A DNA stretch of 64,000 nucleotides, taken from contig OZ024743.1 of the NCBI GenBank assembly GCA_964016885.1, positions 215,574,001 through 215,638,000 on the forward strand. Reading direction: 5' to 3'. Numbering within the stretch: position 1 is the first letter of the stretch; each line of letters starts with the position of its first letter. Below, one piece after another: positions 2,818-53,106 of this stretch. The stretch is from Eledone cirrhosa. Lineage: Eukaryota. The notes beneath the pieces are model-generated. The model saw nothing but the letters and a program-made list of their open reading frames with translations. It was not told the origin of the DNA and ran no database searches. The position numbers were made by a program, and so were the translations under genes.

Positions 2818-2821
<4 letters not shown>

Positions 2822-4938: not shown

Positions 4939-4942
<4 letters not shown>

Positions 4943-5246
4943 CAAGGTTTGGCAAATAAGAAAAAGTTTCAAAATAAATTTCAAAAAATTCACTGTACTC
5001 ACTATGGTTACCTTTACCGAATCGGTTTCGCTTCTTAAAAAAAAAGGACTGTCCATTTATTTTGAGACTCGAACCTGATTCGGTAAATGTAACCATAGTG
5101 AGTACAGTGAATTTTTTGAAATTTATTTTGAATCTTTTTCTTATTTGCTAAACCTTGATTATATATATTCTGGCTCGTTAATTTATTAACCTGCCATTGA
5201 ACCACATTGGCATATGGATGGACAATACATGTGTCCCTGGACGCTT

Positions 5247-5250
<4 letters not shown>
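4939..5250 (+). mobile_element. Fold-back mini-element between TA tracts
   Basis: ~95 bp inverted arms (4939-5030 vs ~5070-5165) plus a unique tail. The reverse complement of the left arm contains GAAAC-cgattcg-GTA. Confidence 0.6.
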
Positions 5251-5280
<30 letters not shown>

Positions 5281-5284
<4 letters not shown>

Positions 5285-8200: not shown

Positions 8201-8668
8201 TATTTTTGAGTCTATGTATAGTGTGGCGTCTAGGAAGTTAACATTTGTAGTGTTTTTGTCCATGGTGATACTAAGGTTAAAGTTTTTGAATGTCTTGTGC
8301 AATAGTTTTCTAGTTCTTTCTATATTGAATTTTTTATATTCTATAAGTAGAAGTGCATCATCGCGGTGCAAACCACCGTTGAGGTAAAGGAGGTCCTTAT
8401 GGATTTCATTAAGTAGGTATAGGCCGACCAAATCAGTGACCTGCGCCGAGTCACTAGAACCCATGGTTATGTCGAAGTTGTTGTGCGCATACTTGCGGGT
8501 CCATAGTTGGTCCTCGAAGGTGATTATGGTTTTACGGGCCGCAAGTATGACATCAATCTGGGCTCTAGTCACGTCGCCATTGTTCATGGCCATGATTAGG
8601 GCCTTATTTAAGAGGATAGAGGAAATAGAGGTGTAGTATGAATTGATATCAAATTGAATACATTTTTT
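5281..8668 (-). mobile_element. PLE family 1 copy A (inverted, 5'-truncated)
   Basis: ORF 7694-8593 has FDITMGSSDSAQVTDLVGLYLL..GGLHRDD..VNFLDATL..YVDSKSNHP. The segment is the reverse complement of ~12450-15665 plus the 3' extension, and it ends in (TA)n. Confidence 0.92.
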
Positions 8669-11635
8669 GTTAACTTCCTAGACGCCACACTATACCTCGA
8701 CTCAAAAATATATACACCTTTACACAAGCCTAACGAAACACTCATTTACGTGGATACCAAGTCTAATCACCCTAGATCGATATTAAACTCTATCTCTAAG
8801 GGGGTATCCAATAGAATCTCTACTCTATCCTATGACGCAAACATATTTAGCAAAAACTCACAATATTATAATCAAGCATTAGCTAGATCCGGCCATAATA
8901 TGGAGATTGAGTTCCTACCTAAGAAAACATATAGCTACAACATCATCTCGCACAATATGTCCTTGAGGAAACCTAATAATATGAATAGCAACCACACGTA
9001 CACGAAAGCGGAGGGTGCCACCAGAAGTAACCATTACCACTGAAACTACCGTAGTACCTTAGGAAGAAACAACACACGAGACACTAAAAACAAAAATAGA
9101 AGAAGAAATAATACACTTTTCATCCCTCCTTTCAACCTAAATGTCTCCACCAACATACCTAGGGCTTTCTTCTCACTACTAGATAAAACACTTCCCTCTA
9201 GGACACAAGTACCATAACCTTTTAAACAAAAACACTATTAAAATCTCATACTCTACGACGCCTAACTTAGCATACCACATAGCTAGCAGAAATAAAAGTA
9301 AAATTAATTCTTACTTTCAACAAACGAAATCACAACAGGAGGTAAACCTTCTAAATACCTCTCTAGCAATCAACCACAATAACGGCAGTAATAATAGAAA
9401 TAACAATAGTATAAGAAATAACACCGGGGTCGACAATCCGAATGTCCAAAATCCTATAGCTACCACCCGGACTTCTGCACTGCATTATAACCAGCAGACT
9501 AACACCCAGGATAATTGTAACTCTAGAGCTAATAGAACCTGCCCTTTAGATAAAAAAAATGCCTAACCAAGGATATCATATACTCATGCACTGTCACAAC
9601 TAGCAACTCTTCAGAAACCTATGTAGGCTCCACTTCTAACTGCTTCAAAATCAGATATAATCCGCACATCCACTCGTTCAAAAAGCACAGTCTAGCCAAC
9701 TCCACCTCACTATCTAGCTACATACACTATCTAAAAACTAAAAATAAACCTTACACATTCAAATGGGAATTGATAGTTAGCGCGACTTCGTACAAACCAC
9801 CTAATAAATTGTGTAACCTCTGTATACTAGAGACCCACAATATTACTTCTCTAACCGTAACCTACTTAACAAAAAATCTGAAGTGTTTGCAACTTGCCAG
9901 CACCGCTTCAGACATTCCTTCCTAAATTTTAAGCCCAATATAGAGCAATGTCGGACTTGAACCAAACACCACCTCTAGCATCAAACACCAGGGTCACACC
10001 TCATACCACCACCCCAACATTCATTGATCTAATATAACAGAAATCGCGACATCCCTCTGGAACCCTTCACAGGGAGAATACCCCTTTGTAATTCTACTTT
10101 GGGTGTGACAACATCCACTTGCTTGAACTGCACTACACCACTTTATAGTTAATTTAAGCATTGAATTGATTGTATTGTTGGTGCTGTGCGGAGGAAGTGC
10201 CATCGTTGGACAAATGCAAAACTAATTAATCTAGTAACGCTGATGAGCTGTATGACCGGTAAGCTGAGTGCAGTGAATAAATGTATTGCAAGTGGCGTAT
10301 GGGTTGTACATATATGTGTGATTTGATGGTCAGATTGGAGTCATGAGGACTGTGGATTGACCTCTGGTCTGCCCTAGTGATGATTATCTTTCGACATCCA
10401 ATGTAGCAAGCACTGACCCAGAACTTACCGGAGATCATTGTGTGTTGTAGTGATTCTGCAATCACATTGCCTGGTTCTTTGAGTAGACATCAATCACAGA
10501 GATCATTAATTGAGAATTCTCACTCGTCGTGTATAATATTCATTTGTGGCACTCTGCGATGGGGGTTAATCACCAGAATAGGAACACCTTCAGCACAACT
10601 TAATAGACTACTCTATAGTTAAAACATTTTAAATTTTTAGAAATTTTTTAGAAACTGCGCATAACCAAATAGGTTAGGGTCTATTTTGAGACACAATTTA
10701 ATAGTTAGTGATAGAAACCGCTGGGTTACCTCCCCTCATGCATTAAATCCCCTAGCCACACACACACTTCCGGGTAGTATTTCCATGTCGATTCTCGCAA
10801 CGTATCTTCCTCCTGTATTGAGCTAAAGAACATCAGACTACGATTCTCTAACTGGATTGTCAAACTACCAATATCGAATAGTTGTGGATTATGTGAGGAG
10901 CATATAATCTGAAAAATACGCTCCCCAGACTATGAAAATGTCGCAGTGCATGAAATCCTTATCATCGCTTCGCTACGCATTTCCAATATTTTTAATGCTT
11001 ACACTATTTGTAATACTTATATTATTTCTCCACGCACAGACTATAACAATCATATGAAAAATTCATCACCAGATCAACCACCTCAACACTCTCGATTACC
11101 TGCTTAAATGCTTCTATTACACGTAACTCTCTGCCACACTATATAAACAAGACGCACGTTCTTACCATACATATAACCTTTGCACTATATAGCCGCTTAA
11201 ATTTATGTTGTATTTTAATCTGTATTTTTGATTGTATCTTTTAATATGAATGTAATCTCTAAGCGTGTACTGCCACACTAAATGCTATAATGAATGTTGA
11301 CCCACAATATGTTCATATTTATCTATATGTCTCTTGGGTGATAAGGAGGTCATATAAGTGTTCATTCAATAATAAATTGCTCTGAAGAATCCAAACCTCG
11401 CTTTGGAGGAAACAGTTGTATGCATAAAAATGTTTTGAACAGTTCTTTGATTCTTATAATTCATATAACTACTCTGTAAATCATCTGATGTTTTTACATT
11501 GAGCTATTTAGCTTACTGGTAATAAGGTAGTAATATATTACTGCCTACCACTATTTAGGGTTTATATAAAAATATATATAACTGCAAACGGTTTTTGTAT
11601 TTGCATAACCATAAATAGTATAATTAATACTATTA
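8668..11635 (+). mobile_element. PLE family 1 copy B (5'-truncated; acts as a long upstream pseudo-LTR)
   Basis: Starts at VNFLDATL. Direct repeat of copy C at an offset of ~4.2 kb (core motif at 11382 vs 15583). Confidence 0.92.
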
Positions 11636-11677
11636 ACTGATCCATACTGTTGAGCTGACATACAATAAATTACCAAT

Positions 11678-14130
11678 ATGCTAATCAAAGACCAACTCCC
11701 CATGTCAACCATGAACATACCAATACTATCCAAGAATACGTGTGAGAAATTGCTGATCAACAGTGTAAATACATTTATCAATAGAGTGAGATGGATGACA
11801 TTCCATTATTGTAGAAACAGATCTAACAATGTTAATAATACTAACAAATTTGACTCCTTCGGCTTTAAAACCTTTAAAAGCCCCCCTCATAACACACTAC
11901 TTAACTCCTTTGAAAATGACCTAGTAAAACTAGTTAAGAACATTAAATACAGTAAGCACAGTAATAGTAGCAACACCTTCTTAAACAAACTTAACACGTC
12001 TATTAATGAATTCAAAACTAGTAATAAAATTATTGTATACGCAGATAAAACTAATAACATATACAGCCTGGATTATAATACTTATAGAAAGTTTATATAT
12101 AATGAACTACATAAAAGCTACAAGAAAACCACTTTGAAAAACTTAGAAGATATTAATATAGAGGGATATAATATAGTGTCTAAACTAGGACATCAGAGGC
12201 ATACACAACCATACACCCCTAACCCCCCCCCCCCCCCTAGATTCTCTCTGAAGGATCATAAGGAGGACTTCATTAGCAACCCCACGATTAGACTTATCTG
12301 CCCTTCCAAGTCCGACATTGGTATTATCAGCAAGAACATTTTAGACAAAATCATCCCACAAATTAAACACAAGATACACCTTAAACAATGGGGAAATACG
12401 GGTGAAGTTATTGAATGGTTCAAAGATATCAAGAATAATAAGGACAAGGAATTTATTTAGTTTGATATCAATTCATACTACACCTCTATTTCCTCCTATC
12501 CTATTAAATAAGGCACTAATCATGGCCATGAACAATGGCGACCTGACTAGAGCCGAGATTGATTTCATCCTTGCGGCCCGTAAAACAATAATCACCTTCG
12601 AGGACCAACTAGGGACCCGCAAGGATACGCACAACAACTTCGACATAACCATGGGATATAGTGACTCGGCGCAGGTCACTGATTTGGTCAGGCCTATACC
12701 TACTTAATGAAATCCATAAGGACCTCCCTTACCTCAACGGTGGTTTTACCGCGATGATGCACTTCTACTTATAGAATATAACAAATTCAATATAGAAAGA
12801 ACTAGAAAACTATTGCACAAGACATTCAAAAACTTTAACCTTAGTATCACCATGGACAAAAACACTAAAAATGTTAACTTCCTAGACGCCACACTATACC
12901 TAGACTCAAAAATATATACACCTTTCCATAAGCCTAACGAAAAACACATTTACGTGGATACCAAGTCTAATCACCCTAGATCAATATTAAACTCTATCTC
13001 TAAGGGGGTATCCAATAGAATCTCTAATCTATCCTATGACACAAACATATTTAGCAAAAACTCACAATATTATAATCAAGCATTAGCTAGATCCGGCCAT
13101 AATATAAATATTGAGTTCCTACCTAAGAAAACATATAGCTACAACATCATCTCGCACAATATGTCCTTGAGGAAACCTAATAATATGAATAGCAACCACA
13201 CGTACACGAAAGCGGTGGGTGCCACCAGAAGTAACCATTACCACGGAAACTACCGTAGTACCTTAGGCAGAAACAAGACACCAGACACTAAAATCAAAAA
13301 TAGAAGAAGAAATAATACATTTTTCAACCCTCCTTTCAACCTAAATGTCTCCACCAACATACCTAGGGCTTTCATCTCACTACTAGATAAAGACTTCCCT
13401 CTAGGACACAAGTACCATAACCTTTTAAACAAAAACACTATTAAAATCTCATACTCTACGACGCCTAACTTAGCATACCACATAGCTAGCAGCAATAAAA
13501 GTAAAATTAATTCTTACTTCCAACAAACGAAATCACAACAGGAGTTAAACCTTCTAAATACCTCTGTAGCAAGCAACCATAATAACGGCAGTAATAATAG
13601 AAATAACAATAGTATAAGAAATAACACCGGGGTCGACCACCCAAATGTCCAAAATCCTATAGCTACCACCCGGACGTCTGTACTGCATTATAACCAGCAG
13701 ACTAACACCCAGGATAATTGTAACTGTAGAGCTAATAGACCCTGCCCTTTAGATAAAAAATGCCTAACCAAGCATGTCATATACTCATGCACCGTTACAA
13801 CTAGCAACTCTTCAGAAACCTATGTAGGCTCCACTTCTAACTGCTTCAAAATCAGATATAATCCGCACATCCCTCGTTCAAAAAGCACAGTCTAGCCAAC
13901 TCCACCTCACTATCTAGCTACATACACTATCTAAAAACTAATAATATACCTTACACACTCAAATGGGAAGTGATAGGTAGCGGGACTTCGTACAAACCAC
14001 CTAATACATTTTGTAACCTCTGTATACTAGAGACCCATAATATTATCTTCTCTAACCGTAACCTACTTAACAAAAATCCTGAAGTGTTTGCAACTTGCCA
14101 GCACCGCTTCAGACATTCCTTCTAAAACTT
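11678..14130 (+). pseudogene. Disrupted PLE polyprotein (RT with YRDD, CxCx5C linker, GIY-YIG endonuclease)
   Basis: ORF pieces 11678-12460, 12402-12707 and 12813-13895 join via one stop and several frameshifts. Motifs: NIPI..RVRW, FGFK, ADKTNN, LKDHK, RLICPSKS, FDINSYY, YRDD, CNCRANRPCPLDKKC, VIY..YVGST..FKIRY, CNLC. Confidence 0.9.
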
Positions 14131-15578
14131 TAAGCCCAATATATAGCAATGTCGGACTTGAACCAAACACCACCTCTAGCATCAAACACCAGGGGCACAC
14201 CTTATACCACATCCCCAACACTTATTGATCTAATATAACAGAAATCGCGACATCCCTCTGGAACCCTTCACAGGGAGAATACCCCTTTGTACTTCTACTT
14301 TGGGTGTGACAACATCCACTTGCTTGAACTGCACTACACCACTTTATAGTTAATTTAAGCAATGAATTGATTGTATTGTTGGTGATGTGCGGAGGAAGTG
14401 CCATCGTTGGGCAAATGAACAACTAATTAATCTAGTAACGCTGAAGAGCTGTATGACCGGTATGCTGAGTGCAGTGAATAAATGTATTGCAAGTGGCGTA
14501 TGGGTTGTACATATATGTGTGATTTGATGGACAGATTGGAGTCATGAGGACTGTGGATTGACCTCTGTTCGGCCCTGGTGATGATTATCTTTCGACATCC
14601 AATGTAGCAAGCACTGACCCAGAACTTACCGGAGGTCATTGTGTGTTGAAGTGATTCTGCAATCACCTTGCCTGGTTCTTTGAGTAGACTGCAATCACAG
14701 AGATCATTAATTGAGAATTCTCACTCGTCGTGTATAATATTCATTTGTGGCATTCTGCGATGGGGGTTAATCACCATAATAAGAACACCTTCAGCACAAC
14801 TTAATAGACTACTCTATAGTTAAAACACTTGAAATTTTTAGAAATTTTTTAGAAACTGCGCATAACCAAATAGGTTAGGGTCTATTTTGAGACACATTTT
14901 AATAGTTAGTAATAGAAACCACTGGGTTACCTCCCCTCATGCATTAACTCCCCTAGCCACACACACACTTCCGGGTAGTATTTCGATGTCGATTCTCGCA
15001 ACGTAACATCCTCCTGTATTGAGCTAACGAACATCATACTACGATTCTCTAACTGGATTGTCAAACACCCAATATCGAATCGTCGTGAATTATGTGAGGG
15101 GCCTATAATCTGAAAAATACGTTACCCAGACTATGAAAATGTCGCAGTGCATGAAATCCTTATCATCGTTTCGCTACGCATTTCCATTATTTTTAATGCT
15201 TACACTATTTTTAATACTTATATTATTTCTCCACGCACAGACTTTAACAATCATATAAATAATTCATCACCAGATCAACCACCTCAACACTCTCGATTAC
15301 CTGCTTAAATGCTTCTATTACATGTAACTCTCTGCCACACTATATAAAAAAGACGCACGTGCTTGCCACACATATAACCTTTGTACTATATAACCGCTTA
15401 ATTTCATGTTGTATTTTAACCTGTATTTTTGATTGTATCTTTTAATATGAATGTAATCTCTAAGCGTGTACTGCCACACTAAATGCTATAATGAATGTTG
15501 ACCCACAGTATTTTCATATGTATCTGTATGTCTCTTGGGTGATAAGGAGGTCATATAAGTGTTCATTCAATAATAAAT

Positions 15579-15625
15579 TGCTCCGAAGAATCCAAACCTC
15601 GGTTTGGAGGAAACAGTTGTAAGCA
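15579..15625 (+). ncRNA. Minimal type-I hammerhead-like motif of PLE family 1 (core CCGAAGA; CTGAAGA in copy B at 11382)
   Basis: tgct-CCGAAGA-a-tccaaacc tc ggtttgga-g-GAAAC-agtt-GTA-agca. Stem III ACAGTTGT is self-complementary with one G-U. Also present at ~5487-5533(-), ~11378-11424(+) and ~49214-49260(-). Confidence 0.6.
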
Positions 15626-15660
15626 TAAAAATGTTTTGAACAGTTCTCTGATTCTTATAA

Positions 15661-15744
<84 letters not shown>

Positions 15745-15747
<3 letters not shown>

Positions 15748-16175
15748 GGTGTTGGATGCTTAAAGCGACCATATGCGTTAGGCTGTATAAACACTCAATG
15801 CTCTCATAGAGCAGAGTATGATATCACAGAAGAGAATCAGTGTTGCGAGGAATGGAATTTATTGGACATATTACAATAGTTTCTCTGGCGTCCAGCTCGA
15901 GGCACGATGATTGTGATGATCGAACCTGACTGTGAACATCTCAAGGTCCTCAGATATGTCTTGATTCTACGTAGCAGATTTTCCTAGGAAAAATCTGCTT
16001 TCCATAGGAAAATCTGCTTCGTAGAATGAATACGTATCTGAGGACCTTGCTATTTTCAGAGTCAGGTTCGATCATCACATCGATCGTGCCTCGAGCTTGT
16101 CGCCAGACAAACGATTGTAATATGTCCAATAAATTCCATTCGTCACAACACTGATTGTCTTTTTTCTGTGATATA
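15745..16175 (-). mobile_element. Fold-back mini-element adjoining TA tracts
   Basis: ~165 bp inverted arms (15821-15987 vs ~16003-16174). The arms contain GAAAC-tatt-GTA...AATAAA. On the minus strand the tail reads actctgctct..attgagtgt. Confidence 0.65.
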
Positions 16176-21302: not shown

Positions 21303-27374
<6,072 letters not shown>

Positions 27375-27529
27375 GTATAAAAATATACATACATTTAAGT
27401 ACCAGCCGTACTAAGGGTGAGAAATGAAATTTTGTTTCATTCTTTTCCATTTATCGTTTTCGGTGCGCCGATATGTAAATTAGACTGCTCAGCCGTTAAT
27501 TTTCATAGGGAAAGTATATACTTTCGAAC

Positions 27530-27616
27530 GTTCAACCATCTGGCAGAAGGGTATACGGTGCTGATGATAGCTAAGAAGCTTGAAACTAGTACATCGTTCC
27601 TGTGTCAGTGTTGAAC
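27530..27616 (+). ncRNA. Type-I hammerhead ribozyme, intact core (predicted cleavage after GTA at 27591)
   Basis: acggtg-CTGATGA-t-agct aaga agct-t-GAAA-ctagT-A-catcgt. Stem I is extended by aggg/tcct, ctggca/tgtcag and gttcaac/gttgaac. Confidence 0.88.
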
Positions 27617-27863
27617 AAAAAGGTGACGATGATTGCCTGAACACTGTACGGCGTAATTTGGGCTCTTTGTTTACTAACAAACCGAGCATTATAATAAATG
27701 TTCGGTAAACCCATACGTACATGTATATATGTGTGCATGTATGTATATATATACACACTACTGTACGTCTGTATATGTATGTACATATACATACATACTT
27801 ACATCTAAGTACCAGCCGTACTAAGTGTGAGAAATTAAATTCCGTTTCATTCTTTTCCATTTA

Positions 27864-27901
<38 letters not shown>

Positions 27902-28170
27902 CATATATATAAGTTGTAAAAGAATGAAACGACATTTTATTTCTCACTCCTTAGGGCACTTACTTCAATGTAAGTATGTATGTATACGTACATACACATA
28001 TGTAAACAGACGTATACGTATAAGTGCCGTACTAAGAGTGAGAAATGAAATTTCGTTTCATTCTTTTACAACTTATTGTTTTCGGTACGCCTGGCCGACT
28101 TAACTCACTCGATATGCAAATCAGGCTGCTCAGCCGTTAGGTTTCATAAGGAAATTATATACTTTCGAAC

Positions 28171-28257
28171 GTTCAACCATCTGGCAGAAGGGTATACGGT
28201 GCTGATGATAGCTAAGAAGCTTGAATCTAGTACATCGTTCCTGTGTCAGTGTTGAAC
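28171..28257 (+). ncRNA. Type-I hammerhead, mutated (GAAA>GAAT)
   Basis: Same fold as 27530, with A15.1 substituted. Confidence 0.75.
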
Positions 28258-28630
28258 AAAAAAGGTGACGTGGTGGCCTTAAAACCGTACGGCATAAATC
28301 AGGCTGTCCTTTTGTTTACAAACGGACAAAGCGGGCGTTATAATAAACGTCCGCTAAATTGATACGTACATATATATATATGTGTACCTGTATTGATATA
28401 TATATATATATATATATGCATGCTGATGTACGTCTGTGTACATATATGTATGTACGTACGTATACATACTTACATTTAAGTAAGTGCCGTACAAAGAGTG
28501 AGAAATGAAATTTCGTTTCATTCTTTTACAACTTATCGTTTTCGATACGCCTGGCCGACTGAACTCACTCGATATGCAAACTAGGCTGCTCAGCCCTTAA
28601 TTTTCATAAGGAAAGTATATACATTCGAAA

Positions 28631-28717
28631 GTTCAACCATCTGGCAGAAGGGTATACGGTGCTGATGATAGCTAAGAAGCTTGAAACTAGTACATCGTTC
28701 CTGTGTCAGTGTTGAAC
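28631..28717 (+). ncRNA. Type-I hammerhead ribozyme, intact core (predicted cleavage after 28692)
   Basis: Same sequence as the HHR at 27530. Confidence 0.88.
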
Positions 28718-28847
28718 AAAAAGGTGACGTGGTTGCCTTAACACAGTACGGCATAAATCAAGCTGTCCGTTTGTTTACAAACGGACAAAGTGGCCGTTAT
28801 AATAAACGTCCGCTAAACTGATACGTACATATATATATGTGTACCTG

Positions 28848-28953
<106 letters not shown>

Positions 28954-29163
28954 TGCTACTGTACGTCTTTATACATATATGTATGTACATAGACATACAT
29001 ACTTACATTTAAGTAAGTGCCGTCCTAAGAGTGAGAAATGAAATTTCGTTTCATTCTTTTACAACTTATCCTTTTCAGTACGCCTGGCCGACTGAACTCA
29101 CTCGATATGCAAATTAGGCTGCTCAGCCGTTAATTTTCATAAGGAAAGTATATACTTTCGAAG

Positions 29164-29250
29164 GTTCAACCATCTGGCAGAAGGGTATACGGTGCTGATG
29201 ATAGCTAAGAAGCTTGAAACTAGAACATCGTTCCTGTGTCAGTGTTGAAC
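29164..29250 (+). ncRNA. Type-I hammerhead, mutated cleavage triplet (GTA>GAA)
   Basis: Same fold, with U16.1 substituted. Confidence 0.75.
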
Positions 29251-29351
29251 AAAAAGGTGACGTGGTTGCCTTAATACCGTACACCATAAATCAGCGGGCG
29301 TTATAATAAACGTCCGCTAAACTGATACGTACATATATATATGTGTGCCTG

Positions 29352-29411
<60 letters not shown>

Positions 29412-29462
29412 AAGCTACTGTACGTCTGTATACATATATGTATGTACGTATACATACATACT

Positions 29463-29574
<112 letters not shown>

Positions 29575-30880: not shown

Positions 30881-31203
30881 AACATATATCATTATAAAAT
30901 ATTGAATGGCATATATGTACGCATAAATATCCAATGATATAAATGCATAAGACATATCAACCTTTAACAAAGATACATGTGAGGGAGATATATATATGAT
31001 TTTTATAAGGTATCGATGTTTTAAATTTTTGTTAAATTTTAATGTATTCTTACATTCTATACAAGTTGTCTCTTGTTAAAGATTGATATGTCTTATGCAT
31101 TTATATATTTGGATATTTATGTGTATATATATGTCATTCACTATTTTATAATAATTAATTGCTACGATTTATTCTTTGAATTTTTTCTATGAGCTGATTA
31201 TGG

Positions 31204-32556: not shown

Positions 32557-32610
32557 TAAATGGAAAAAAATAAATTTCATTTCTCACTCTTAGTACGACT
32601 GATACTTATA
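32557..32610 (-). mobile_element. Short terminal fragment of the array-1 family
   Basis: Reverse complement of ..gtactaagagtgagaaatgaaattt..ttttccattt, abutting TA-rich sequence. Confidence 0.6.
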
Positions 32611-35600
32611 TATATATATATACTTATTTGAATTAAATACAAATTTTAATCGTATGTTTATATAAATCCATACTTATATATCCTCTGGATGGGAACCAAC
32701 ACTTGGGTGTCAATTTTACATTTAAAAGTAGTTTCTAATGGTATTGAAATAAAATAATACATTTCTTGGCAATAATTATGTGATGATATAAGAATATTTA
32801 TATATTCAAAACAAAATCTCTCTTACCTTAACTGACTCATATCTCCACCAGTATTCTAAAACCAGAGAATCAAAAAACGTCGTTAATAAATGTACACACG
32901 CACGCACACACAAACACACACACATACACAAGCACATACACACATACATACACACGCGCGCGCGCGCACAAACATATATATATATATATTATATTACATT
33001 ATGTTATATTATATTATATTATATTATATTATATTATATATTATATTATTTATTTGTGTCCCTACACTGAACAAATCCGCTACCGAAGGCTTCAAGGCCC
33101 GAATTTGACCATATCCCCAGAAAATAATTGACATAAAATTAGTGATATCAGGTGCTTAATAGAGTTTATTAGTTCGTATTAACTCGTATGAGCGCTTTCA
33201 AAATGTTCTCTAATTTGATGCCTTTGCATTCTGGAAGTATGGTCAAATTTGATAGCGTGTTTATTCCGTGTACGAACATAAACAATGTATTTCTGCTCTC
33301 TTCCTGATTGTGCCTTGGTTTCCCTTTTCCTTTTCGCACACACGGATATTGCTACCTATAAGTATTGTAAAACCAATGAGAATATACCATTTATTTCCCT
33401 CAATCCGGTGTCGATAGAATCAATATAGAATATTACTAGCCACATAAGATCAAACTTATAATATGGATTGCTCTTCCCATTATAGGCTTTTGAGCTTTTG
33501 CTTTTCTAATAAATAATCTGAAATAATAATCGGATATATATACGCAAATATGTCCAGTTGAGTTGTAAGGACAGCTGAAGAAACAAAATCTTAGTGGAAA
33601 ATGTTAACAACTCTCAAAGTAATAAAACTCTAATTTCAAGCGAATTCGAATTAACTTCGCAGAATATTTCATTCTCATTCTTAGGAATATGACATAATTA
33701 TGTAGAGTATTTCGGTAATTCCAATTGTATTATATTTCAATAGCATCCTCTGTGAAATTCCAAATTATCACAAGAACAAGAAGCCATCAAAAGGCAGATT
33801 TGTCCTATAATCTGTAACAATGAACATAATTGTATATGACATATATGTCATGTTTTTGTCATTGCATGTTTCGAGCTAGATTTTAATTAATTGTACTTAT
33901 CTAATTTCATATATTATTAAATTCATCTACTTCTCTACTCTATAGTTATTTTAATTTCCGCGTGTCTGTGTTGTCGCAAATGATGCCGGAATAAGAATAA
34001 TATTTACTAAAAGAGTTAAAATATGAAACATGTTGACAATTATGTCTACATACCACATATTTACTACTAATTAACTTTGTAATAAAATTGCATGAAATAT
34101 TTAAAACATTACTTAGGTATGAGTACGCCAGTTTAAAGACGTTCAACTCAAAGAATAATATATCAAAGAATTGAGTTTACTAAATCATAAACGTTAAAAG
34201 GAGATGCTAAATGGAACGTAATTCTCGATGAAAATTATTCAGTTTTATCAGAGTGCAATACAAATTAGTAGGAAAAAGATTAATTAAATTGCATTATCAA
34301 TCCCTGTGTAATATCAAGCGCTATAAAAATGTCGTCATTGTTGTATTCAAAAGGCCTAGCCACAAGGTCATAATATTTGTGTGAGAAAACAGTTGATTAT
34401 GCATCTACTTCGCTTCACGGATGGAAGAGAGCCAACATTTACATTAGTGGTATGCGTACTAAGAACATAATGGATGAAACAAAATACTACTGGGAATTTC
34501 ATCTCAATTTTTACCAATATTCCCAATACACAGATTGCGTATAGAGTGACATTCAATATAAAATAATATATCTAGATAATGATAAAATGTTTCCCACTAA
34601 TAGATACTTTACCTAGACGTACATACATATCTGAAGCAAACCTCTCTTTGTAGTCCCATGTGACATATGATAATGAAAATGCTATTCGTTGCTATGAACA
34701 TGAACATATTAACTCATCATTTTGCCCAATAATATCACCTCTAATGCATATGCATTATTGACTTTGGGAGTGAGAATATCTTCGGGCGAATTTTGCAGTG
34801 CACCAAAATGTGTATATTATATTGTAAAGAACGCTATCGCATGGTATTATCTATGAGGTATATACGAAACAATAGCAATTCGTTTACTTCTGCTTCTTTT
34901 CAACTGTGATCCGCATTGGGATCTCGGACTGTACCATAGCTCATTAACATATATATATATATTCTCAATGTAAATATATACATATTGTTGGGTAGGTTAT
35001 TTGCAAAAGACATTGAATCACTGGACTGATTGCTTCATTGTGTGTTTCTCTTTCTGATCTCTGCATTATAATTTAGCCGATGCCTGTTTTACTTTTAAAG
35101 GTCTCGGGCATCATGAATATGTTTCCACTTAAGGGATCTCAAGCTAGCAAATGATATAATATTGGCATTAAGTGATCATATCCCACCATCTGTCACTGGA
35201 ATTCGCTCAGGAATCGAGAACTTCAAGTAGACTCAGCAAAGGAATGGTCAATGTAAACATAGACTTAACGGTCCGATTGTAAATGGTCCAACTTGTAAAA
35301 CTGTATATACGCTAATATAATGTTTAAGGCATCCTACAGCAAAGACCAAAGAAAGTATTGGAGTATTCCACACAAATTGCATAAAATATACCAACGTGGT
35401 TTGGGCTATTTCAGAACAATAATCGTGACGTCAGCCAACGAACCGCCATTGCTATAAACACGCAATGTAAATATCATCATACACGGGGCGTAACATGAAA
35501 TGCGAGTACTTAATGTAATCATGTAAGATCGTAAGATCGGTAGAGATATCACGAGGTCTATTTCAAGAGGGCCCAGCACGTGGGGGATAATAATGCTGAC

Positions 35601-37136: not shown

Positions 37137-37182
<46 letters not shown>

Positions 37183-37185
<3 letters not shown>

Positions 37186-38775
37186 ACAAACATAGAATAT
37201 TCGAAAATATTCTGTATGTTTATAATAAACATTTTGAAGACCCAATCGCTATAAAATAGAATACGTCACGTATTACAATTTGAGATTCTCGATAAAAGCA
37301 AGGGAAGTAACCTACGCGTTTCATTCTTATTAGAAATCATCAGGATTACATATCCAATGCTTTTATCGAGAATGACACAGCTAGAGACATATAGAATACT
37401 TAGCTGTGTACAGGAACTGGTTTGAAAGAGCGGTAGTCGGTCCGGCAGAAATTAGAATTTGGATTTAGTGCTCTGAAATAGCGATATATATGTGAAGACA
37501 AACATAGAATATTCGAAAATATTCTGTATGTTTATAATAAACATTTTGAAGACCCAATCGCTATAGAATAGAATACGTCACGTATTACAATTTGAGATTC
37601 TCGATAAAAGCAAGGGAAGTAACCTACGCGTTTCATTCTTATTAGAAATCATCAGGATTAGATATCCAATGCTTTTATCGAGAATGACACAGCTAGAGAC
37701 ATATAGAATACTTAGCTGTGTACAGGAACTGGTTTGAAAGAGCGGTAGTCGGTCCGGCAGAAATTAGAATTTGGATTTAGTGCTCTGAAATAGCGATATA
37801 TATGTGAAGACAAACATAGAATATTCGAAAATATTCTGTATGTTTATAATAAACATTTTGAAGACCCAATCGCTATAGAATAGAATACGTCACGTATTAC
37901 AATTTGAGATTCTCGATAAAAGCAAGGGAAGTAACCTACGCGTTTCATTCTTATTAGAAATCATCAGGATTAGATATCCAATGCTTTTAACGAGAATGAC
38001 ACAGCTAGAGACTTATAGAATACTTAGCTGTGTACAGGAACTGGTTTGAAAGAGCGGTAGTCGGTCCGGCAGAAATTAGAATTTGGATTTAGTGCTCTGA
38101 AATAGCGATATATATGTGAAGACAAACATAGAATATTCGAAAATATTCTGTATGTTTATAATAAACATTTTGAAGACCCAATCGCTATAGAATAGAATAC
38201 GTCACGTATTACAATTTGAGATTCTCGATAAAAGCAAGGGAAGTAACCTACGCGTTTCATTCTTATTAGAAATCATCAGGATTACATATCCAATGCTTTT
38301 ATCGAGAATGACACAGCTAGAGACTTATAGAATACTTAGCTGTGTACAGGAACTGGTTTGAAAGAGCGGTAGTCGGTCCGGCAGAAATTAGAATTTGGAT
38401 TTAGTGCTCTGAAATAGCGATATATATGTGAAGACAAACATAGAATATTCGAAAATATTCTGTATGTTTATAATAAACATTTTGAAGACCCAATCGCTAT
38501 AGAATAGAATACGTCACGTATTACAATTTGAGATTCTCGATAAAAGCAAGGGAAGTAACCTACGCGTTTCATTCTTATTAGAAATCATCAGGATTACATA
38601 TCCAATGCTTTTATCGAGAATGACACAGCTAGAGACTTATAGAATACTTAGCTGTGTACAGGAACTGGTTTGAAAGAGCGGTAGTCGGTCCGGCAGAAAT
38701 TAGAATTTGGATTTAGTGCTCTGAAATAGCGATATATATGTGAAAACAAACGTAGAATATTCGAAAATATTCTGT
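37183..38775 (-). mobile_element. Retrozyme-like tandem array 2: 5.1 x 312 bp units, one HHR per unit
   Basis: Unit register at 37185, 37497, 37809, 38121, 38433 and 38745. Units are nearly identical and non-coding; the minus-strand 3' end abuts (TA)n. Confidence 0.85.
37307..37349 (-). ncRNA. Type-I hammerhead ribozyme (also at 37619, 37931, 38243, 38555)
   Basis: Minus strand gtaatc-CTGATGA-t-ttct aata agaa-t-GAAA-cgcgT-A-ggttac, closed by a 15-bp helix ttctcgataaaagca/tgcttttatcgagaa. The core is intact in all five copies. Confidence 0.88.
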
Positions 38776-39149
<374 letters not shown>

Positions 39150-39629
39150 CCGGTTGTATCTCAGCGCACACAATGGGCAATGTAAGATACATTACCAGAG
39201 TATACATATCGTTATTTGCCTCAAAACAACACACGTAAAACGGGTGCCTATAAGTCCCGGACTCGAGTTTCTGCCGCACTAATGCAGCAGTAAGGTGCAG
39301 AGCACCATCTGTCTGCATATATTATACAACAATGCACAATCGGCTTATCCAGCTACATCAGTGGGTATGCCCTAATCAATAACCAATCGATCGACAGAAT
39401 CCAAACACCAGTCCATGCCAGTCATGACTGTTTGTGACAACCGACACGGTAAGGCGATTAGCAACTGGCAACCGATAGGACTCTATCTCTCAACTAGCCA
39501 CTGATTTACAAATTTTACGTGGGGACGGGAAGCTAAAAAGAATCAATCTTTTAGTTCCTGTCAGAATATATATAACCAAAGATTAATATGGTTCATTGAG
39601 TACTCAATGAATATAGTTTTACAATATAT

Positions 39630-39950
39630 TAAAAGCACTCTACAAGAAAGTGTTCTGGAGTTATTAATATTATTCAGAATATTAATAAATTAAAACATTC
39701 ACATAATCAAGATATATAAGTTATTATATATATATCAAAGGTACTGTGCTGTTTTTTCAGTGCGTCCCGTCAGATGACTGCCAATACTGGAATTGAACCA
39801 TCAAGAACGTTGCGGTATGTCATACATCAATTCATGTATTTTATCTGACGTGAACCTACTGAAACACCAGAACAGTACCTTAGAAATATATATAATAAAA
39901 CATATTTTGATTATGTAAATGTCTTCATTTATTAATATTCTGAATAATAT
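39630..39950 (-). mobile_element. Degenerate fold-back mini-element
   Basis: Arms ~39667-39776 and ~39842-39950. The minus-strand tail actccag..tgtagagtgct resembles the tail at 47302-47330. Confidence 0.55.
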
Positions 39951-39955
39951 ATATA

Positions 39956-41086
39956 TATCGTTTCTGAATTTGTTTAGCAAGATTCTTTATCTGAAAACGT
40001 GTGTTGAAACCGATATTGTTATACTTTGGGAGGGTCATGTTGCCAATAAGAAACACACACACCAGTTGCTTTCACTCCAATTTATTGTAAACTTAAAAAA
40101 TGTTTTTAAACATTTAAAAAAAAAAAGAAATTATAAATTTCCGGCTGGTTGGTTGTTCCACAACCGGACGGTTCTTCATATATTGTCAAAGTTTTTTCGT
40201 CACACATTATGTGAGCTATTCAGTGACTGGGATTATTTTCTTTGTTTTGTGCCTCTACTTTGGTCTGCACTACGCCATCTTGTTTTTGTGTGTGTTGTGT
40301 GCTTAATTTGCGCATGTGTTACATCCGCGTGTCTGTGTGTGTTTTTATTTGTTTATTTATTTGTTTATTTACATGTTACTGGTTGGTTTTATGTGTGTGT
40401 GTTTTCATTTTGTCCTTAATTGTAAGTTGTGATGTTGCTATTGCATTCATGTGTTCTATTTAATTTTGGTTGTAGTTCTTTTATGTTTATTGCCTCTGTG
40501 ATTTGTCTAAACATTGCGTCTTTTCTGTGTGTAGATTATATTTTTATTTCTATGTTCTCTAATTTGCCCTTGTGTTCTATTTTAGCATGTTGGTGGAGTA
40601 CTGATAATCCTTTTCTATCTTGAAGCTCTCGCCAGTGTTTATTAAACCGTTTTCCTATACTACGAGCTGTCTCACCTATGGACAATATATTATTATCTTT
40701 ACATTGTCCTTTAGTACATCTTATGCTATATACTATGTTTTTAGTTTTACAGTTAATATGGGGCTTAGTTTACAGATTATGCATTTCCTATCTATACAGG
40801 GAGGTCTTTGAAAAGCGTATGTATTAATAATATGTGTTTTAATGGAGGTACCTGGTTTTCTAACTATCTTAATATTAAGTTTAAGTTTATCTTGGGCCCT
40901 TCTAAATTTGTACGCTAATTCACCTCTAGAGCTTGTATTGATGAACATTACACTCTGGTATTTATTGCTATCATACCATGATTTTATTCTATTAACCTTA
41001 TTCCTAGTTCTTTCTATTCTATTCCAAAATTTGCTCCTATACAAGGGGCAGGTCCCATTGTATCATGATACAAATGGGACCTGCCC
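39956..41086 (-). mobile_element. PLE family 2, diverged 5'-truncated copy with a ~20 bp fold-back at the 5' junction
   Basis: YRSKFWNRIERTRNK..QRPPCIDRKCIICK. Same 3' end in TA as other copies. Palindrome gggcaggtcccatt-gtatca/tgatac-aaatgggacctgccc at 41046-41086. Confidence 0.88.
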
Positions 41087-41499: not shown

Positions 41500-42107
41500 C
41501 AGGTCACCAGTTGGTGCTACTGGTAACATGTATCCCAGTACAACCTGTCCCATGGTCGGGTCGTTGGCGACTAAACTGGCAACCCCACCAAGGTTTCTTG
41601 GTGAGGAGGGTGACTTTGGACATCCTGCAGGACTAAAAACAAAACCTGTCAAAGGGCAAAGGAGCTCTTAAGAGTCAATGGCCATCCAAAATCACCGGGA
41701 GAGATGACCCCTTAGCCTTTGTCAAGGCAGAATTCTAGGAGAAGGAAAACTCTGATATAACACCTGCAACCCTGATGGTATCCAATGATGTTGACTTGTT
41801 CTTCTTTTTGGTAAATATCATCTTGGTTAAGAGAGTGGGACTGGCTTTGTGCAGTGCCTTTGCTCACTATAAAAGCTTCACGGCACAGGCATTGCTTTAT
41901 ATCTGGAGATCTCTCTGCACTTGTCGTCACATGGTACCATGGGCCCAGCACTATGTGTCAGTAATTGTCACAAGTGTAGTGTTTGTACCAGAGTTTTCAA
42001 GTCGCTGGCTGGACTAAAAAGTCACACTCGTTCAGCGCATCGGTAGGGGTTCTCCTACATGGATATAAAGTAGTGGCCGTACTCGAAAACGAGTTGGCAG
42101 CCACCAT
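41500..42107 (+). mobile_element. Short RTE-derived non-autonomous element (5' UTR joined to the C-terminal zinc finger and 3' UTR) with a (TATG)n tail
   Basis: ggagaaggaaaactctga motif recalled from RTE 5' UTRs. The 3' part encodes HKCSVCTRVFKSLAGLKSHTRSAHR*. No RT or endonuclease lies in between. Confidence 0.6.
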
Positions 42108-42818
42108 ATGTATGTATGTATATATATATGTATGTATGTATATATGTATATATGTATCTATGTATATGTATGTATGTATATGTGTGTATGTATGTATATG
42201 TATATATGTATGTATATGTGTATATGTATGTATGTATGTATGTATATATGTATGTATGTATGTGTATGTATGTATGTGTATATGTATGTATGTATGTATG
42301 TATATGTATGTATGTGTGTATATATGTATGTATGTATATGTATGTATGTGTATGTATGTATGTGTATGTATGTATGTATATGTATGTATATATATGTATA
42401 TGTATGTATGCATGTGTATGTGTGTATGTGTATATATATGTATGTATGTGTATATGTATGTATGTGTATGTATGTATGTATGTATGTATATGTATGTATG
42501 TGTGTATATGTGTATGTATATGTATGTATGTATGTGTATGTATGTATGTGTATGTATGTATATATATGTATGTATATGTATATATGTATGTGTATGTATG
42601 TATGTGTATGTATGTATGTATGTATATGTATGTATGTATGTATGTGTATATGTATGTATGTATATGTGTATGTATGTGTATGTGTATGTATATGTATATG
42701 TATGTATATATATATGTGTATGTATATGTGTGTGTATGTATGTATGTGTGTATGTATGTATATATGTGTGTATGTATGTATATATGTGTGTATGTATGTA
42801 TATATATGTGTATGTATG

Positions 42819-42854
<36 letters not shown>

Positions 42855-42897
42855 TGTGTATGTGTATGTGTGCATGTATGTATGTATACATGTATAT
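42107..42897. repeat. Compound (TATG/TG/TA)n microsatellite, ~790 bp
   Basis: Directly visible. Confidence 0.95.
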
Positions 42898-43309
42898 ACC
42901 GGGAGAGATGACCCCTTAGCCTTTGTCAAGGCAGAATTCTAGGAGAAGGAAAACTCTGATATAACACCTGCAACCCTGATGGTATCCAATGATGTTGACC
43001 TGTTCTTCTTTTTGGTAAATATCATCTTGGTTAAGAGAGTGGGACTGGCTTTGTGCAGTGCCTTTGCTCACTATAAAAGCTTCACAGCACAGGCATTGCT
43101 TTATATCTGGAGATCTCTCTGCACTTGTCATCACATGGTACCATGGGCCCTGCACTATGTGTCAATAATGGTCACAAGTGTAGTCTTTGTACCAGAGTTT
43201 TCAAGTCGCTGGCTGGACTAAAGTCACATTCGTTCAGCGCATCGGTAGGGGTTCTCCTACATGGATATAAAGTAGTGGCCGTACTCGAAAACGAGTTGGC
43301 AGCCACCAT
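42898..43309 (+). mobile_element. 5'-truncated second copy of the RTE-derived element
   Basis: Near-identical to 41694-42107 and has the same 3' end. Confidence 0.75.
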
Positions 43310-43618
43310 GTATGTATATATGTATGTATATAGTGATCCTCAAATACAATTTATTCTGAAAGTATATTAAAGATAAACTGGCATACATATTATCTAAAGG
43401 AATACGCTTAGTTGAGTCCGATACAAACATTCTTTATTCATTAACGGTCGTAGAGCAACGAATGACGTATTTCACAAAAAACGTATAAATATGATATAGT
43501 TCTAGGAAAATCACCAAGGTAAGTTTAAATGCGTCAAATGGGGTTTTTCTTACGATTTATAAAAAAATTTTCAGTAATAAATAAATACACTTTTCGGTAA
43601 TAAATATATATATATATA

Positions 43619-44816: not shown

Positions 44817-44822
<6 letters not shown>

Positions 44823-45232
44823 TAAACGGAAAAGAAAATGCTGACAAATTGTTCACAGTGAAAAATACTTTAATTAGGAATAAGTGAGAATTAGTAATAG
44901 TATTGGTTAGTATTCAGTTTTGGTTTTAAGTTTTACCGGTTGCGCATTTCTAATGGTTTTCACATATAATTTTGAGATAGAGCGTCCGTGATGTTGGCTC
45001 TAATCAGATTAGAGCAAACAGCATTGACGCTCTATCTCATAATTATTTTTGAGAAGCATTAGAAATGCGCAACCGGTAAAACTTAAAACCAAAACTGAAT
45101 ATTAACCAATACTATTACTAATTCTCACTTATTCCCAATTAAACTATTTTTCACTGTGAACAATTTGTCAGCATTTTCTTTTCCGTTTACCAATACATCA
45201 TAACTTGTGTGTTACACCTCTATTCTTTTAAA
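44817..45232 (+). mobile_element. Fold-back mini-element with an HHR-like motif
   Basis: ~188 bp arms (44817-45195) centred near 45006, plus a tail. Right arm: TTGAGAA-gcatt aga aatgc-GCAAC-cggT-A. Confidence 0.7.
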
Positions 45233-45689: not shown

Positions 45690-45691
<2 letters not shown>

Positions 45692-46935
45692 TAATAATAA
45701 TAATATTAAATTTGAAGACTAAAATCCAAAGATGGCTCGATAGGATAAATATATATCAAATATATAAGAACCGTAGAAAAAATATTTATTAAAATAACAG
45801 ATTAAAGTTTAAGCAAAGAATCGCTGCTTTCACCCTTAACGGGATATTCTGAAACTAACAAAGACAATCTGTAAACGCAGAAGTGGATATTTCAAAAAAA
45901 CGTTGCAACCGGAGGAAGACAGGAAGACGATACTTTGGTTCGTGGAAACGTTCCCTGGCAAAGAACGGGAAAAAAACGAATATAATACGTCATTAATAGG
46001 AGCGGTGAAAAACAATTACGCGCAAAGACATAACCATGTTTATGGTATAAAAGAAGTCGTAGACTAATGTTCTCTTAGGTGGTTCATAGAGACGTTCTCT
46101 GGCAATGAACGGAAAATACGAAGATAATACGTCATATGTGGAGCGTGGAGAACAATTGCACGCAAAGGCAAAACCACGTAAATGGTATAGCTGAAGTCGT
46201 AGACTAAAATTCCACCTAAGAAACCGAATGAATCTCCGCTTTAGAGTTAAGAATAAAGTAAATAAAATAAAATACATAGGAAATAGAAATTAAATAAATA
46301 CATACACGCAAATACGTACATACACACGCATACGCGAAAACACTTGCCATAGGTATACAAAACCACGCACATATAAATATGTGTGTGTGTGTGCGTGTAT
46401 ACAAATAAATAAATAATTAAATAAACGTATATAAATAAATAAATACGTATATAGAAGCGCACACACATACCTACATGTAAATGCACAACTGTTCGGAGAC
46501 GTAAGTCAACCAAAACATGAAGTACACATATACACATACCCTATATACGTCCGAACCTGCATGCTCACACAGACGCAAAACTCCCGTAAACACATAACCA
46601 AACCATATGTACCATAATATATGAAAAATTATACGCCATAACATATACAATCAAATATACGTACGAGAAAGTATACGTAACTTCACAAAACATACAGGTA
46701 ATATGTGCTTACCTATGCAAATAAGTAATCGTATAAACAAAATATATACTTAGCTACCACATCAAGACGTAAAATATCCACGTATAGATCGTACTATCCG
46801 TTAGGGTATAACCTGGGGCTCTAATACAGGAAAGTTTTGTGCAATTTATGTTTACAAGCCGAAATTCCAGCCGAAAATCCAGCCGCAAAGCAGCGATTCT
46901 TTGCTTAAACTTTAATCTGTTATTTTAATAAATAT
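45690..46935 (-). mobile_element. PLE family 3 3' region plus a short inverted end (46886-46932)
   Basis: Homologous to 2818-4105; flanked by (TA)n. A tiny end fragment also occurs at ~49750-49820. Confidence 0.85.
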
Positions 46936-46953
46936 ATATATATATATATATAT

Positions 46954-47345
46954 ATAATATGAGATCAAAAGATGGTTAAAAGTGTTCGAAGTATATTATT
47001 ATGCGCATTTCAAAAAACAAATATCATCATGAAATGATATCTGCGTTTTCATCAGATAAAAGAGGCATACATGGTATGAAGGTTAAACAACACTTGTGAA
47101 TAGTGAAGTTTTAAATCATCATATATTGATATGTTGATTTAAAACTTCACTATTCACAAGTGTTTTTAACCTTCATATCATGTATCACTATTTTATCTGA
47201 TGAAAACCCAGATATCATCTCATGATGATATTTGTTTTTGAAATGCGCATAATAACATACTTGGAACTCTTTTAACCATCTTTTGATCTTATATTATTTA
47301 TACTCCAGTCTTACAAACTGTAGAGTGCTACTTATCCGATATTTG
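46954..47345 (+). mobile_element. Fold-back mini-element with a canonical HHR in each arm
   Basis: Arms 46954-~47122 and ~47130-47297, followed by the tail actccag..tgtagagtgcta. Confidence 0.75.
47192..47255 (+). ncRNA. Minimal type-I hammerhead (mirror copy on the minus strand at ~46996-47060)
   Basis: ttat-CTGATGA-[aaacccagatatcat ctcatg atgatatttgttttt]-GAAA-tgcgcaT-A-ataa. Stem III ATGCGCAT is palindromic. Confidence 0.75.
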
Positions 47346-48479
47346 CATTGCAACTGTGTGTGTGTGTGTATGTTTGTATGTGTATGAGAGTGTGCATGTA
47401 CGTATATATGCATGAATATGTATAGAATTAGAATTGAGAAATAATAGAAGAATTAGAGAAATAGACATGAACGTCACCCTTATTTATATATATGTAGATA
47501 CACTGAACCTCTATTGGTCACTGTTTTCTCTTTAGGTATTTTTAGCAATTATGATCTATGTCGAAATTTTATTTAATTGTTTATCTGTAATTATACTTTT
47601 CTATTCAATGGAAATGTGTTAGCTTAAATTCTCTATACGTTGAGAAATTATTTACCTCAACATGGTTACTAACACTATGTATTTTGTTAGAAAAGTATTA
47701 TTTATTATATATATTTATGAATGCACCTGTCTCTTGGTTGGTGTAACTGTGACTTCAATATTGCTGTCTTCTTCAGGGCAGGGATCTAGTGGCCATATTT
47801 ATCTGCACACGATGGCAAAGAAAGAAAATAATATAATGGTTGAGAACATATATTTACATACTAAATTCTTGCGTTCTTATAGGGGAGAGAGCCGAACACA
47901 TAAGGTGTATTGATAATACAGTAACAAATATTACAGTGCATTTCAGTTTGAAGACACTAATTAATTGACATCAACAATCTTGCTAGCATAATCAAATATC
48001 TCCACCTTCATGCGATTAGGTACAAAACGATTTTAGTGTCAGGATTACACCGAGTGATATACCATTTATCTGTACTGAAACTTTGTTGACCAATACGACA
48101 TTATTTCTTGGTTTGTGTAGTATCTTCCGGGGATAGAGGACATATTGTGTAGCACTATAATACAGTGACTGTTCCTTATTGAACATTCTAATATACCATT
48201 AAATCGAATGGAATATCGAACGTACAAATTGTCCTTTTTATATGCTGTATACTTTTACAGATTTTTTTAATGCTGATATATGTAAGAATAATGCGAAGTA
48301 GCATGCTAAACCACTTCGAATGATATGTTGTAGTTTTACCTTAAACATGTTGTTTTGTGACACAATACACTTTGATCCCTCAGAATTATGTGTGTGACTA
48401 GACATGAAGGGATCAGAAAACGATTCTCCTAGAAATTACTACGAATGAAAGGGCCAGTATATGAACAATTCTAGTACAA

Positions 48480-49171: not shown

Positions 49172-49722
49172 ATATGAATTATAAGAAACAAAGAACTGTT
49201 CAAAACATTTTTATGCTTACAACCGTTTCCTCCAAACCGAGGTTTGGATTCTTCGGAGCAATTTATTATTGAATGAACACTTATATGACCTCCTTTTTAC
49301 CCAAGAGACATACAGATACATATGCAAATATTGTGGGCCAACATTCATTATAGCATTTAGTGTGGCAGCACACATTTAGAGATTACATTCATATTAAAAG
49401 ATACAATCAAAAATATATGTCTCTTGGGTGAAAAGGAGGTCATATAAGTGTTCATTCAATAATAAATTGCTCCAACAATCCAAACCTCGGTTTGGAGGAA
49501 ACAGTTGTGAGCATAAAAATGTTTTGAACAGTTCTTTGATTCTTATAATTCATATAACTGCTCTGTAAATATTCTGATGTTATTACATTGAGCTATTTAA
49601 CTTACTGGTAATAAGGTAGTAATATATTACTGCCTACCACTGTTTAGGGTTTATAAAAATATATATAACTGAAAAAGGTTTTTGTATTTCCATAACCATA
49701 AATAGTATAATTAATTAATACT
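49172..49722. mobile_element. PLE family 1 terminal-only inverted insertion (no ORF)
   Basis: 49172-~49415 matches the family-1 end in minus orientation. ~49416-49722 matches the end plus the 3' extension in plus orientation. TA lies at both sides. Confidence 0.85.
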
Positions 49723-49816
49723 ATATATATATACTAATAATAATTAATTTGATGACTAAAATCCAAAGAGTGCTCGATAAGGATAAATATATATCAAATA
49801 TATAAGAACCGTAGAG

Positions 49817-49896
<80 letters not shown>

Positions 49897-53032: not shown

Positions 53033-53106
53033 CTTTGAGGTCATAGAATACGAAACATTTGTGCCTCCCAGGAGGCACAAATGTTTCGTATTCTATGACC
53101 TCAAAG
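53033..53106. repeat. Perfect 36-bp-arm hairpin with a 2-nt loop
   Basis: ctttgaggtcatagaatacgaaacatttgtgcctcc-ca-ggaggcacaaatgtttcgtattctatgacctcaaag. Confidence 0.95.

Follow-up and report, generated by a model that had tools for sequence, protein, structure and literature searches.

The insertion ends of an Eledone cirrhosa retrozyme family suggest a probable insertion in trans by a TA-targeting PLE

The window analysed here, a 64-kb stretch of AT-rich animal DNA, contains one TA locus in which three insertions are nested in the order TA, PLE-B, TA, element A, TA, element B, TA. Elements A and B lie head to head and represent two subfamilies of one tandem repeat, the array-1 family, to which the short fragment C also belongs. 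The arrays contain no credible ORF. Their longest ATG frame is a low-complexity frame of 123 amino acids on the minus strand, and no stop-to-stop frame of at least 150 amino acids occurs in 27371-29470. The ORF with RT and GIY-YIG that marks an autonomous PLE is absent from the arrays, and no LTR, primer binding site or polypurine tract was seen in them by eye. By its sequence, the array-1 family is an animal non-LTR retrozyme, an ORF-less tandem repeat with a predicted type I hammerhead. It was probably inserted by the RT and GIY-YIG nuclease of a TA-targeting PLE, and we infer that this occurred in trans because the arrays have no ORF. The features are listed in Table 1.

Table 1. Features of the TA locus and of the related elements, with positions in the window
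Feature	Position	Strand	Description
PLE-A (context)	5282-15663		DKT and CxCX5C motifs, Hydra type; long end left, short end right
PLE-B (context)	21404-27260		RT in the inverted arm, 21404-24767 (-); GIY-YIG in the tandem arm, 24768-27260 (+)
(TA)n tract	27261-27370		Between PLE-B long end and element A 5' end
Element A, subfamily 'ccattt'	27371-27861	+	One 410-bp unit and a direct terminal repeat of ~80-90 bp; 3' end is the long site
Type I hammerhead motif of A1, intact core	27555-27597	+	CUGAUGA at 27561; predicted cut after 27591
(TA)n tract	27862-27911		Between A long end and inverted B long end
Inverted 5'-truncated arm of element B, subfamily 'acaactt'	27912-28014	-	103 bp; long end outward
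Palindromic filler at inversion junction of element B	28015-28020		6 nt
Element B tandem array	28021-29467	+	3 hammerhead units and a partial unit (3.1 units); 3' end is the short site
Hammerhead core, unit B1	28202-28232	+	GAAA to GAAT; predicted defective
58-nt 'tail' between short and long end sites	28476-28533	+	Read-through copy in unit B2
Hammerhead core, unit B2	28662-28692	+	Intact
Hammerhead core, unit B3	29195-29225	+	Cleavage triplet GTA to GAA; predicted defective
(TA)n tract	29469-29571		Right of element B short end
Fragment C, tail-only piece	32559-32611	-	TA on both sides

The unit period is 410 bp in element A and 460 and 533 bp in element B, the length varying with an internal TA tract. 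Two adjacent subfamilies had been proposed for this locus ('ccattt' and 'acaactt'), and the alignments agree: the cores of A and B are 88.7-89.4% identical and differ in addition by a 19-bp indel, compared to 93.8-95.3% identity among the B units. Fragment C is nearer to subfamily A (6 differences in 50 positions) than to subfamily B (9 in 50). The monomer folds well (z = -6.6), but this carries little weight, as much of it is owed to TA-rich simple sequence.

A type I hammerhead motif is present on the plus strand in all four full units, two of which (A1 and B2) have an intact core. The motif is made up of a 6-bp helix I, CUGAUGA, a helix II of 4 bp with a closing U.U, GAAA, a helix III formed by the palindrome ACUAGU, and a GUA triplet. 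The palindromic helix III is able to form only between two molecules, and dimeric hammerheads with such a helix are on record (PMC4209133). The same layout recurs in a further array of the window (array-2, 37172-38775), where the helices are of other sequence yet paired, and this covariation supports the hammerhead fold. The G10.1-C11.1 pair that typically, although not obligatorily, closes helix II is missing, with U.U in both arrays; a natural U10.1-U11.1 variant has been described and is reported as the best-tolerated mismatch (PMC3088659). The Rfam search returned no matches at gathering scores, the HH9 match scoring 18.1 bits versus a gathering score of 52, and miRNA matches in the E-value search were discarded as TA-hairpin noise. 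The helix lengths of array-1 are those of canonical metazoan repeats, whereas PLE-B shows the long helix II that PMC4209133 describes for PLE minimal hammerheads. The evidence thus supports a type I hammerhead motif in the unit that is predicted to be self-cutting, and the original prediction of a non-coding ribozyme element is consistent with the intact core in two of the four full copies and the covariation with array-2. The intact cores A1 and B2 are not adjacent, and the copies are not 'active' by the retrozyme rule. For the giant squid genome, 235 hammerhead-1 motifs have been listed (PMC6962438).

Array-2, on the minus strand, is a better candidate for an active copy than array-1. It has a period of 312 bp, 5.1 units that are ~99% identical, and five intact cores with a U.U-closed helix II; its 3' end lies in TA, and an inverted arm was not seen. 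The end of the array-1 tail (28513-28546) is antisense-similar to the array-2 hammerhead at 37300-37345, with a 12-nt exact match; in this comparison, one of 22, the score is 34, while shuffles average 23 (0 of 60). This similarity may be due to chance or may be an inverted hammerhead remnant.

In the original prediction, three ends stop at one position of the unit and run into TA. This was correct for element A (plus strand, last unambiguous base 27861), the inverted arm of B (minus strand, 27912) and fragment C (minus strand, 32559, placed 1-2 nt away at 32557 in the prediction), which share what is here called the long site. It is not the complete picture, because a fourth end, at 29467, lies at a short site 58 nt upstream. 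In all, the ends therefore use two sites, 57-58 nt apart. The probability of three of four ends falling on one site is ~1.7e-4 under a uniform null and ~0.016 if the ends are limited to the 16 TAT/ATA sites of the complex core. All four 3' ends meet TA, one of them through a degenerate flank, while TA tracts of at least 12 nt make up 3.7% of the window. These footprints represent three insertions (A, B, and C) with a single short end, which is known from one copy and lies in simple sequence.

At the long site, read-through copies continue as TAT-CG or TAT-TG/CC and terminal copies as TAT-ATA, which gives a 3-nt overlap with the TA flank. At the short site a G intervenes, and there is no perfect TA overlap. 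Since the arrays read through the long site into non-TA sequence, the TA at the ends is target DNA and not a TA tail of the template. The flank of fragment C is degenerate TA for ~18 nt followed by a perfect tract. Measured from the predicted cut of the ribozyme, the ends lie ~240 and 270-300 nt downstream, indicating that they were not made by the ribozyme. Predicted hairpins cover the short site and precede the long site. In TA flanks of this kind, a target-site duplication, which in retrozymes exceeds 4 bp when present, would be invisible. The 5' junctions at 27371, 28014, 28021, and 32611 all fall within ~50 nt around the short site, a clustering that may be real or an effect of simple sequence.

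Element B has its long end at the left (27912) and its short end at the right (29467), a single instance of unequal ends in this family, and fragment C, which covers the unit between roughly the short site and the long site, is almost exactly the tail. PLE insertions are described as having an inverted 5'-truncated copy, a tail at one end, and a (TA)n bias (PMC8557442), and in the Anolis PLE the tail length equals the spacing of two internal sites at which the RT starts (PMC11167929). The fourth end therefore strengthens the case for PLE-type insertion, as the long/short asymmetry is the PLE tail signature.

The inverted piece of ~100 bp followed by tandem copies that had been noted as a PLE-like architecture was found as described, with 103 bp at 27912-28014, 6 nt, and 3.1 tandem units at 28021-29467. 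The arm duplicates terminal sequence, as in PLE-A and PLE-B, and is present in one of the three insertions. It differs from the B majority at 7 of 102 positions, compared to 9 of 208 for B2 plus B3 (P = 0.41). The divergence of the arm is thus not significantly above that of B2 and B3, which fits one insertion event, and an older, separate insertion as its origin was unsupported. Assembly artefact was rejected as the source of palindromes, the arms of the TA-flanked pairs being 75-93% identical.

We additionally examined 12 other inverted structures in the window, including PLE-A, PLE-B, and 45690-46935. Eight of them (2316, 15745, 39575, 44820, 49176, PLE-A, PLE-B, and 45690) are flanked by TA on either side and end unequally, the two ends differing by 39-170 nt. 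Four do not show this pattern clearly: the structure at 4941 is symmetric or ambiguous, the one at 46957 ambiguous, the one at 30881 meets an assembly gap, and the one at 53033 lacks TA nearby. A tail-only piece between TA tracts also occurs in a second family (49734-49819). The RT of PLE-B (22361-23791, minus strand) has its best match in an Octopus vulgaris protein (69% identity, 97% of the query), which points to an octopod as the probable host. PLE-B has the CX4CxxC linker of the Neptune/Nematis type, its short end at the left, its long end at the right, and a tail of 60 nt, and PLE-A has Hydra-type motifs and a tail of 168 nt. This typing compares translations with the motif descriptions of PMC8557442 and is motif-based; both types are linked there to (TA)n targeting.

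Comparison with the PLE families, as suggested in the original prediction, gave a shared long/short geometry; within the window, the unit core is not similar in sequence to the PLE-A or PLE-B terminal repeats, against which it scores at shuffle level. There was likewise no clear match to eight other elements; over the 22 comparisons array-2 stood out, and the structure at 4941 was at 1 of 60 shuffles. The helper enzyme is thus not named by pLTR homology in the window. The PLE-B tail of 60 nt is close to the 57-58 nt of the array-1 family and makes PLE-B a weak lead as helper, a weak one because tail length varies between 39 and 170 nt in the window.

Several further TA-associated structures were observed in the window. 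The regions 2819-4105, 45690-46935, and 49734-49819 form another family targeted to TA, whose long and short ends lie ~90 nt apart and which includes a tail-only fragment; it has 141-bp internal repeats and, at 2974 on the minus strand, a hammerhead-like motif with CAGAAGA rather than CUGANGA. Short palindromic elements in TA tracts (2316-2766, 4941-5249, 15745-16170, 30881-31203, 39575-39946, 44820-45231, and 46957-47484) are probably solo inverted PLE ends of several families and could pass for MITEs. The sequences at 5282-15663 and 49176-49721 are a Hydra-type PLE by motifs, and their 168-nt tail is far above the 30-40 bp of the literature. A short TA tract at 26191-26205 lies in the tandem arm of PLE-B between a long end and the point at which a truncated copy starts again, with a similar arrangement in PLE-A at 11633, which suggests re-insertion at the element's own end. 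In a further truncated PLE-B copy (39959-41086, minus strand), the long end lies in TA and the 5' junction carries a small fold-back, and a 437-bp direct repeat (96.8% identical) surrounds a long (TATG)n tract at 41694-43332.

Priming through TA microhomology, as originally predicted, agrees with the 3-nt TAT at the long site and with overlaps of 3-5 nt with the TA flank at four of the six distinct end sites, from five families, for which read-through sequence is available; it does not extend to the array-1 short end. Overlap is seen at the long site of array-1 and at the short site in each of PLE-A, PLE-B, and the family at 2819 (4 nt in the last); the array-1 short site and array-2 have no perfect overlap. 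Such overlaps are expected at 5-9% of positions (binomial probability, 1e-4 to 1e-3). The sequences therefore support a role for short pairing in priming at the TA-targeted ends of the window. The Anolis PLE, the one for which in vitro work was done, starts without target homology (PMC11167929).

The family is highly repeated outside the window, with 6,708, 5,971, and 6,202 contig records aligned to one unit in three runs. Runs X1-X3, which represent one related sample, contained 25-37% of the sampled words, indicating related copies and not the locus itself. In X2, 37 contigs form a cluster of loose ends just before the long site, and their consensus is an A-type end into TA (agreement, 0.71) that is probably mixed with read-through copies. 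Among the 24 of 885 loose-end positions listed, none was at the long site for X1 or X3 and none was at the short site; contig records resembling human DNA had been filtered out, by which TA-rich records may be lost. Among the 40 variants listed (74 others), the hammerhead varies at N7, in loop II, and at one helix I base, and the invariant core is unchanged. The largest loose-end signal, 28,535 RAD reads at 28512-28513, was rejected as a library artefact, as the position is an AATT site and the reads begin with CATGC. Other RAD read-end peaks are also at AATT or at variants that create AATT, a pattern that we take to fit SphI/MluCI-type digestion. Pattern scans gave no matches in contigs from metagenomes, viruses, and prokaryote genomes, and phage blastn likewise gave none.

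The anatomy of the elements, the two end sites, the TA flanks, and the same geometry in the local PLEs are observed directly, and we propose the following route to them. The arrays would be transcribed, and dimeric hammerheads would cut the RNA into monomers, possibly circularising them. A PLE protein would nick both strands of (TA)n, and each nick would prime cDNA at a fixed internal site downstream of the predicted cut rather than at the cut, with the 3-nt TAT match helping at the long site. Joining of the two cDNAs at the 5' ends, both truncated, would then produce a short inverted arm and a tandem arm copied from a multimeric or circular template. Mobilisation in trans by a PLE, as first predicted, thus gains support as a type of integration from the long/short tail asymmetry common to the local PLEs, but no cognate PLE was found by homology. 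Further points against PLE insertion are the short end without perfect TA overlap, the inverted arm in only one of three insertions, the mutated cores of two of the four hammerheads, the U.U in place of G-C in helix II, the mixed consensus of the X2 cluster, the homology-free initiation of the Anolis PLE, and a published tail of 30-40 bp, which is shorter than that found here.

The same footprints would be expected if the unit were the pLTR of its own, unseen autonomous PLE, inserted in cis as 5'-truncated copies that later expanded in tandem at the DNA level. The search for an attached ORF covered the 64-kb window, and in Xenopus 24 of 57 retrozyme families match known TEs, 21 of these 22 TEs being PLEs (bioRxiv 10.64898/2026.07.22.740005). 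However, in both A and B the units join unit to unit without an ORF beyond the 123-amino-acid frame, and the short helix II is that of canonical metazoan repeats and not that of PLE minimal hammerheads, so we consider this origin rather unlikely. The array could also be a satellite formed at the DNA level with no RNA, through recombination or slippage between TA tracts and the TA-rich segment of the unit, with fold-back repair producing the inversion. The internal (TA)n tract, the palindromic inversion junction, and the position of all four 5' junctions and the short end in or beside simple sequence fit such a process. It does not explain why the long site lies in complex sequence with a 3-nt overlap and is used by two subfamilies at three places, or why the long/short pattern recurs in RT-encoding neighbours, and it appears improbable.

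A LINE, e.g., of the RTE or CR1/L2 type, might instead have copied the RNA, with twin priming making the 5' inversion; on a multimeric template, twin priming could mimic the terminal duplication. The ends have no poly(A) or encoded repeat tail, and the fixed internal site is used by the inverted arm as well as by two copies that have no inverted counterpart. LINEs were not noticed in the window, whose TA tracts are filled by PLE-type insertions. LINEs have been named as possible retrozyme mobilisers (PMC7229834), but for this locus we regard their involvement as very improbable. Insertion in trans by a TA-targeting PLE therefore remains the preferred reading. A more specific and tentative form of it, for which the chances are lower, is that a retrozyme without kinship to its helper carries its own internal pair of RT start sites, 57-58 nt apart, which a TA-targeting PLE, possibly the Neptune-type neighbour with its 60-nt tail, uses as it would those of its own RNA. 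If so, the footprints would prove animal retrozymes to be true parasites of PLEs, which recognise them through structure and a short pairing with the target, and tail-only insertions would be a recurrent by-product marking both sites.

The element class and the hypothesis of PLE mobilisation are already known. Non-LTR retrozymes have been described in animals including mussels (350-390 bp), with PLEs proposed as mobilisers (Cervera and de la Pena 2020, PMC7229834), and a preprint by Li, Clavereau, and Pollet (2026) derives retrozymes from PLEs (bioRxiv 10.64898/2026.07.22.740005). The case made in these two sources rests on shared hammerheads, co-occurrence, and pLTR homology, and one retrozyme paper allows local array growth from stranded PLE ends. 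Inverted arms, tails, and (TA)n targeting are unreported in the main text of both sources, whose supplements could hold some of them. In the literature searched, which included few subscription papers, no paper was found that treats octopus retrozymes or describes how retrozyme insertions end. The addition made here is the evidence from insertion footprints, which we did not find in that literature and which is a more direct test of the mobiliser than hammerheads, co-occurrence, or pLTR homology. Two nucleotide positions are predicted as RT starts, so that the PLE question is testable by a census of ends or by an in vitro PLE assay.

The array-1 family resembles known animal non-LTR retrozymes in being an ORF-less tandem repeat a few hundred bp long with a type I hammerhead in each unit and in co-occurring with PLEs. 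In contrast to these, its units are somewhat longer (410-533 bp) and have an internal TA tract and a U.U-closed helix II, with no local pLTR homology. The non-autonomous PLEs of Chlamys, e.g., MRC1 (PMC8557442), are similar in lacking autonomy and in their pLTRs and head-to-tail insertions, but their 3' ends are in general like those of autonomous families, and canonical hammerheads are missing from most Chlamys elements. With the EN+ PLEs of the Neptune/Nematis and Hydra types (Craig et al. 2021, PMC8557442), array-1 shares the inverted 5'-truncated arm, partial tandems, one-sided tail, (TA)n target, and a hammerhead upstream of the ends, but it has no RT or GIY-YIG ORF and its tail is 57-58 nt compared to 30-40 bp. 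The Poseidon PLE of Anolis carolinensis (Frangieh et al. 2024, PMC11167929) initiates without homology, whereas the array-1 long site overlaps the target by 3 nt. Both have two fixed internal end sites that lie past the hammerhead and not at its cut, and both use the two strands of an AT-rich target.
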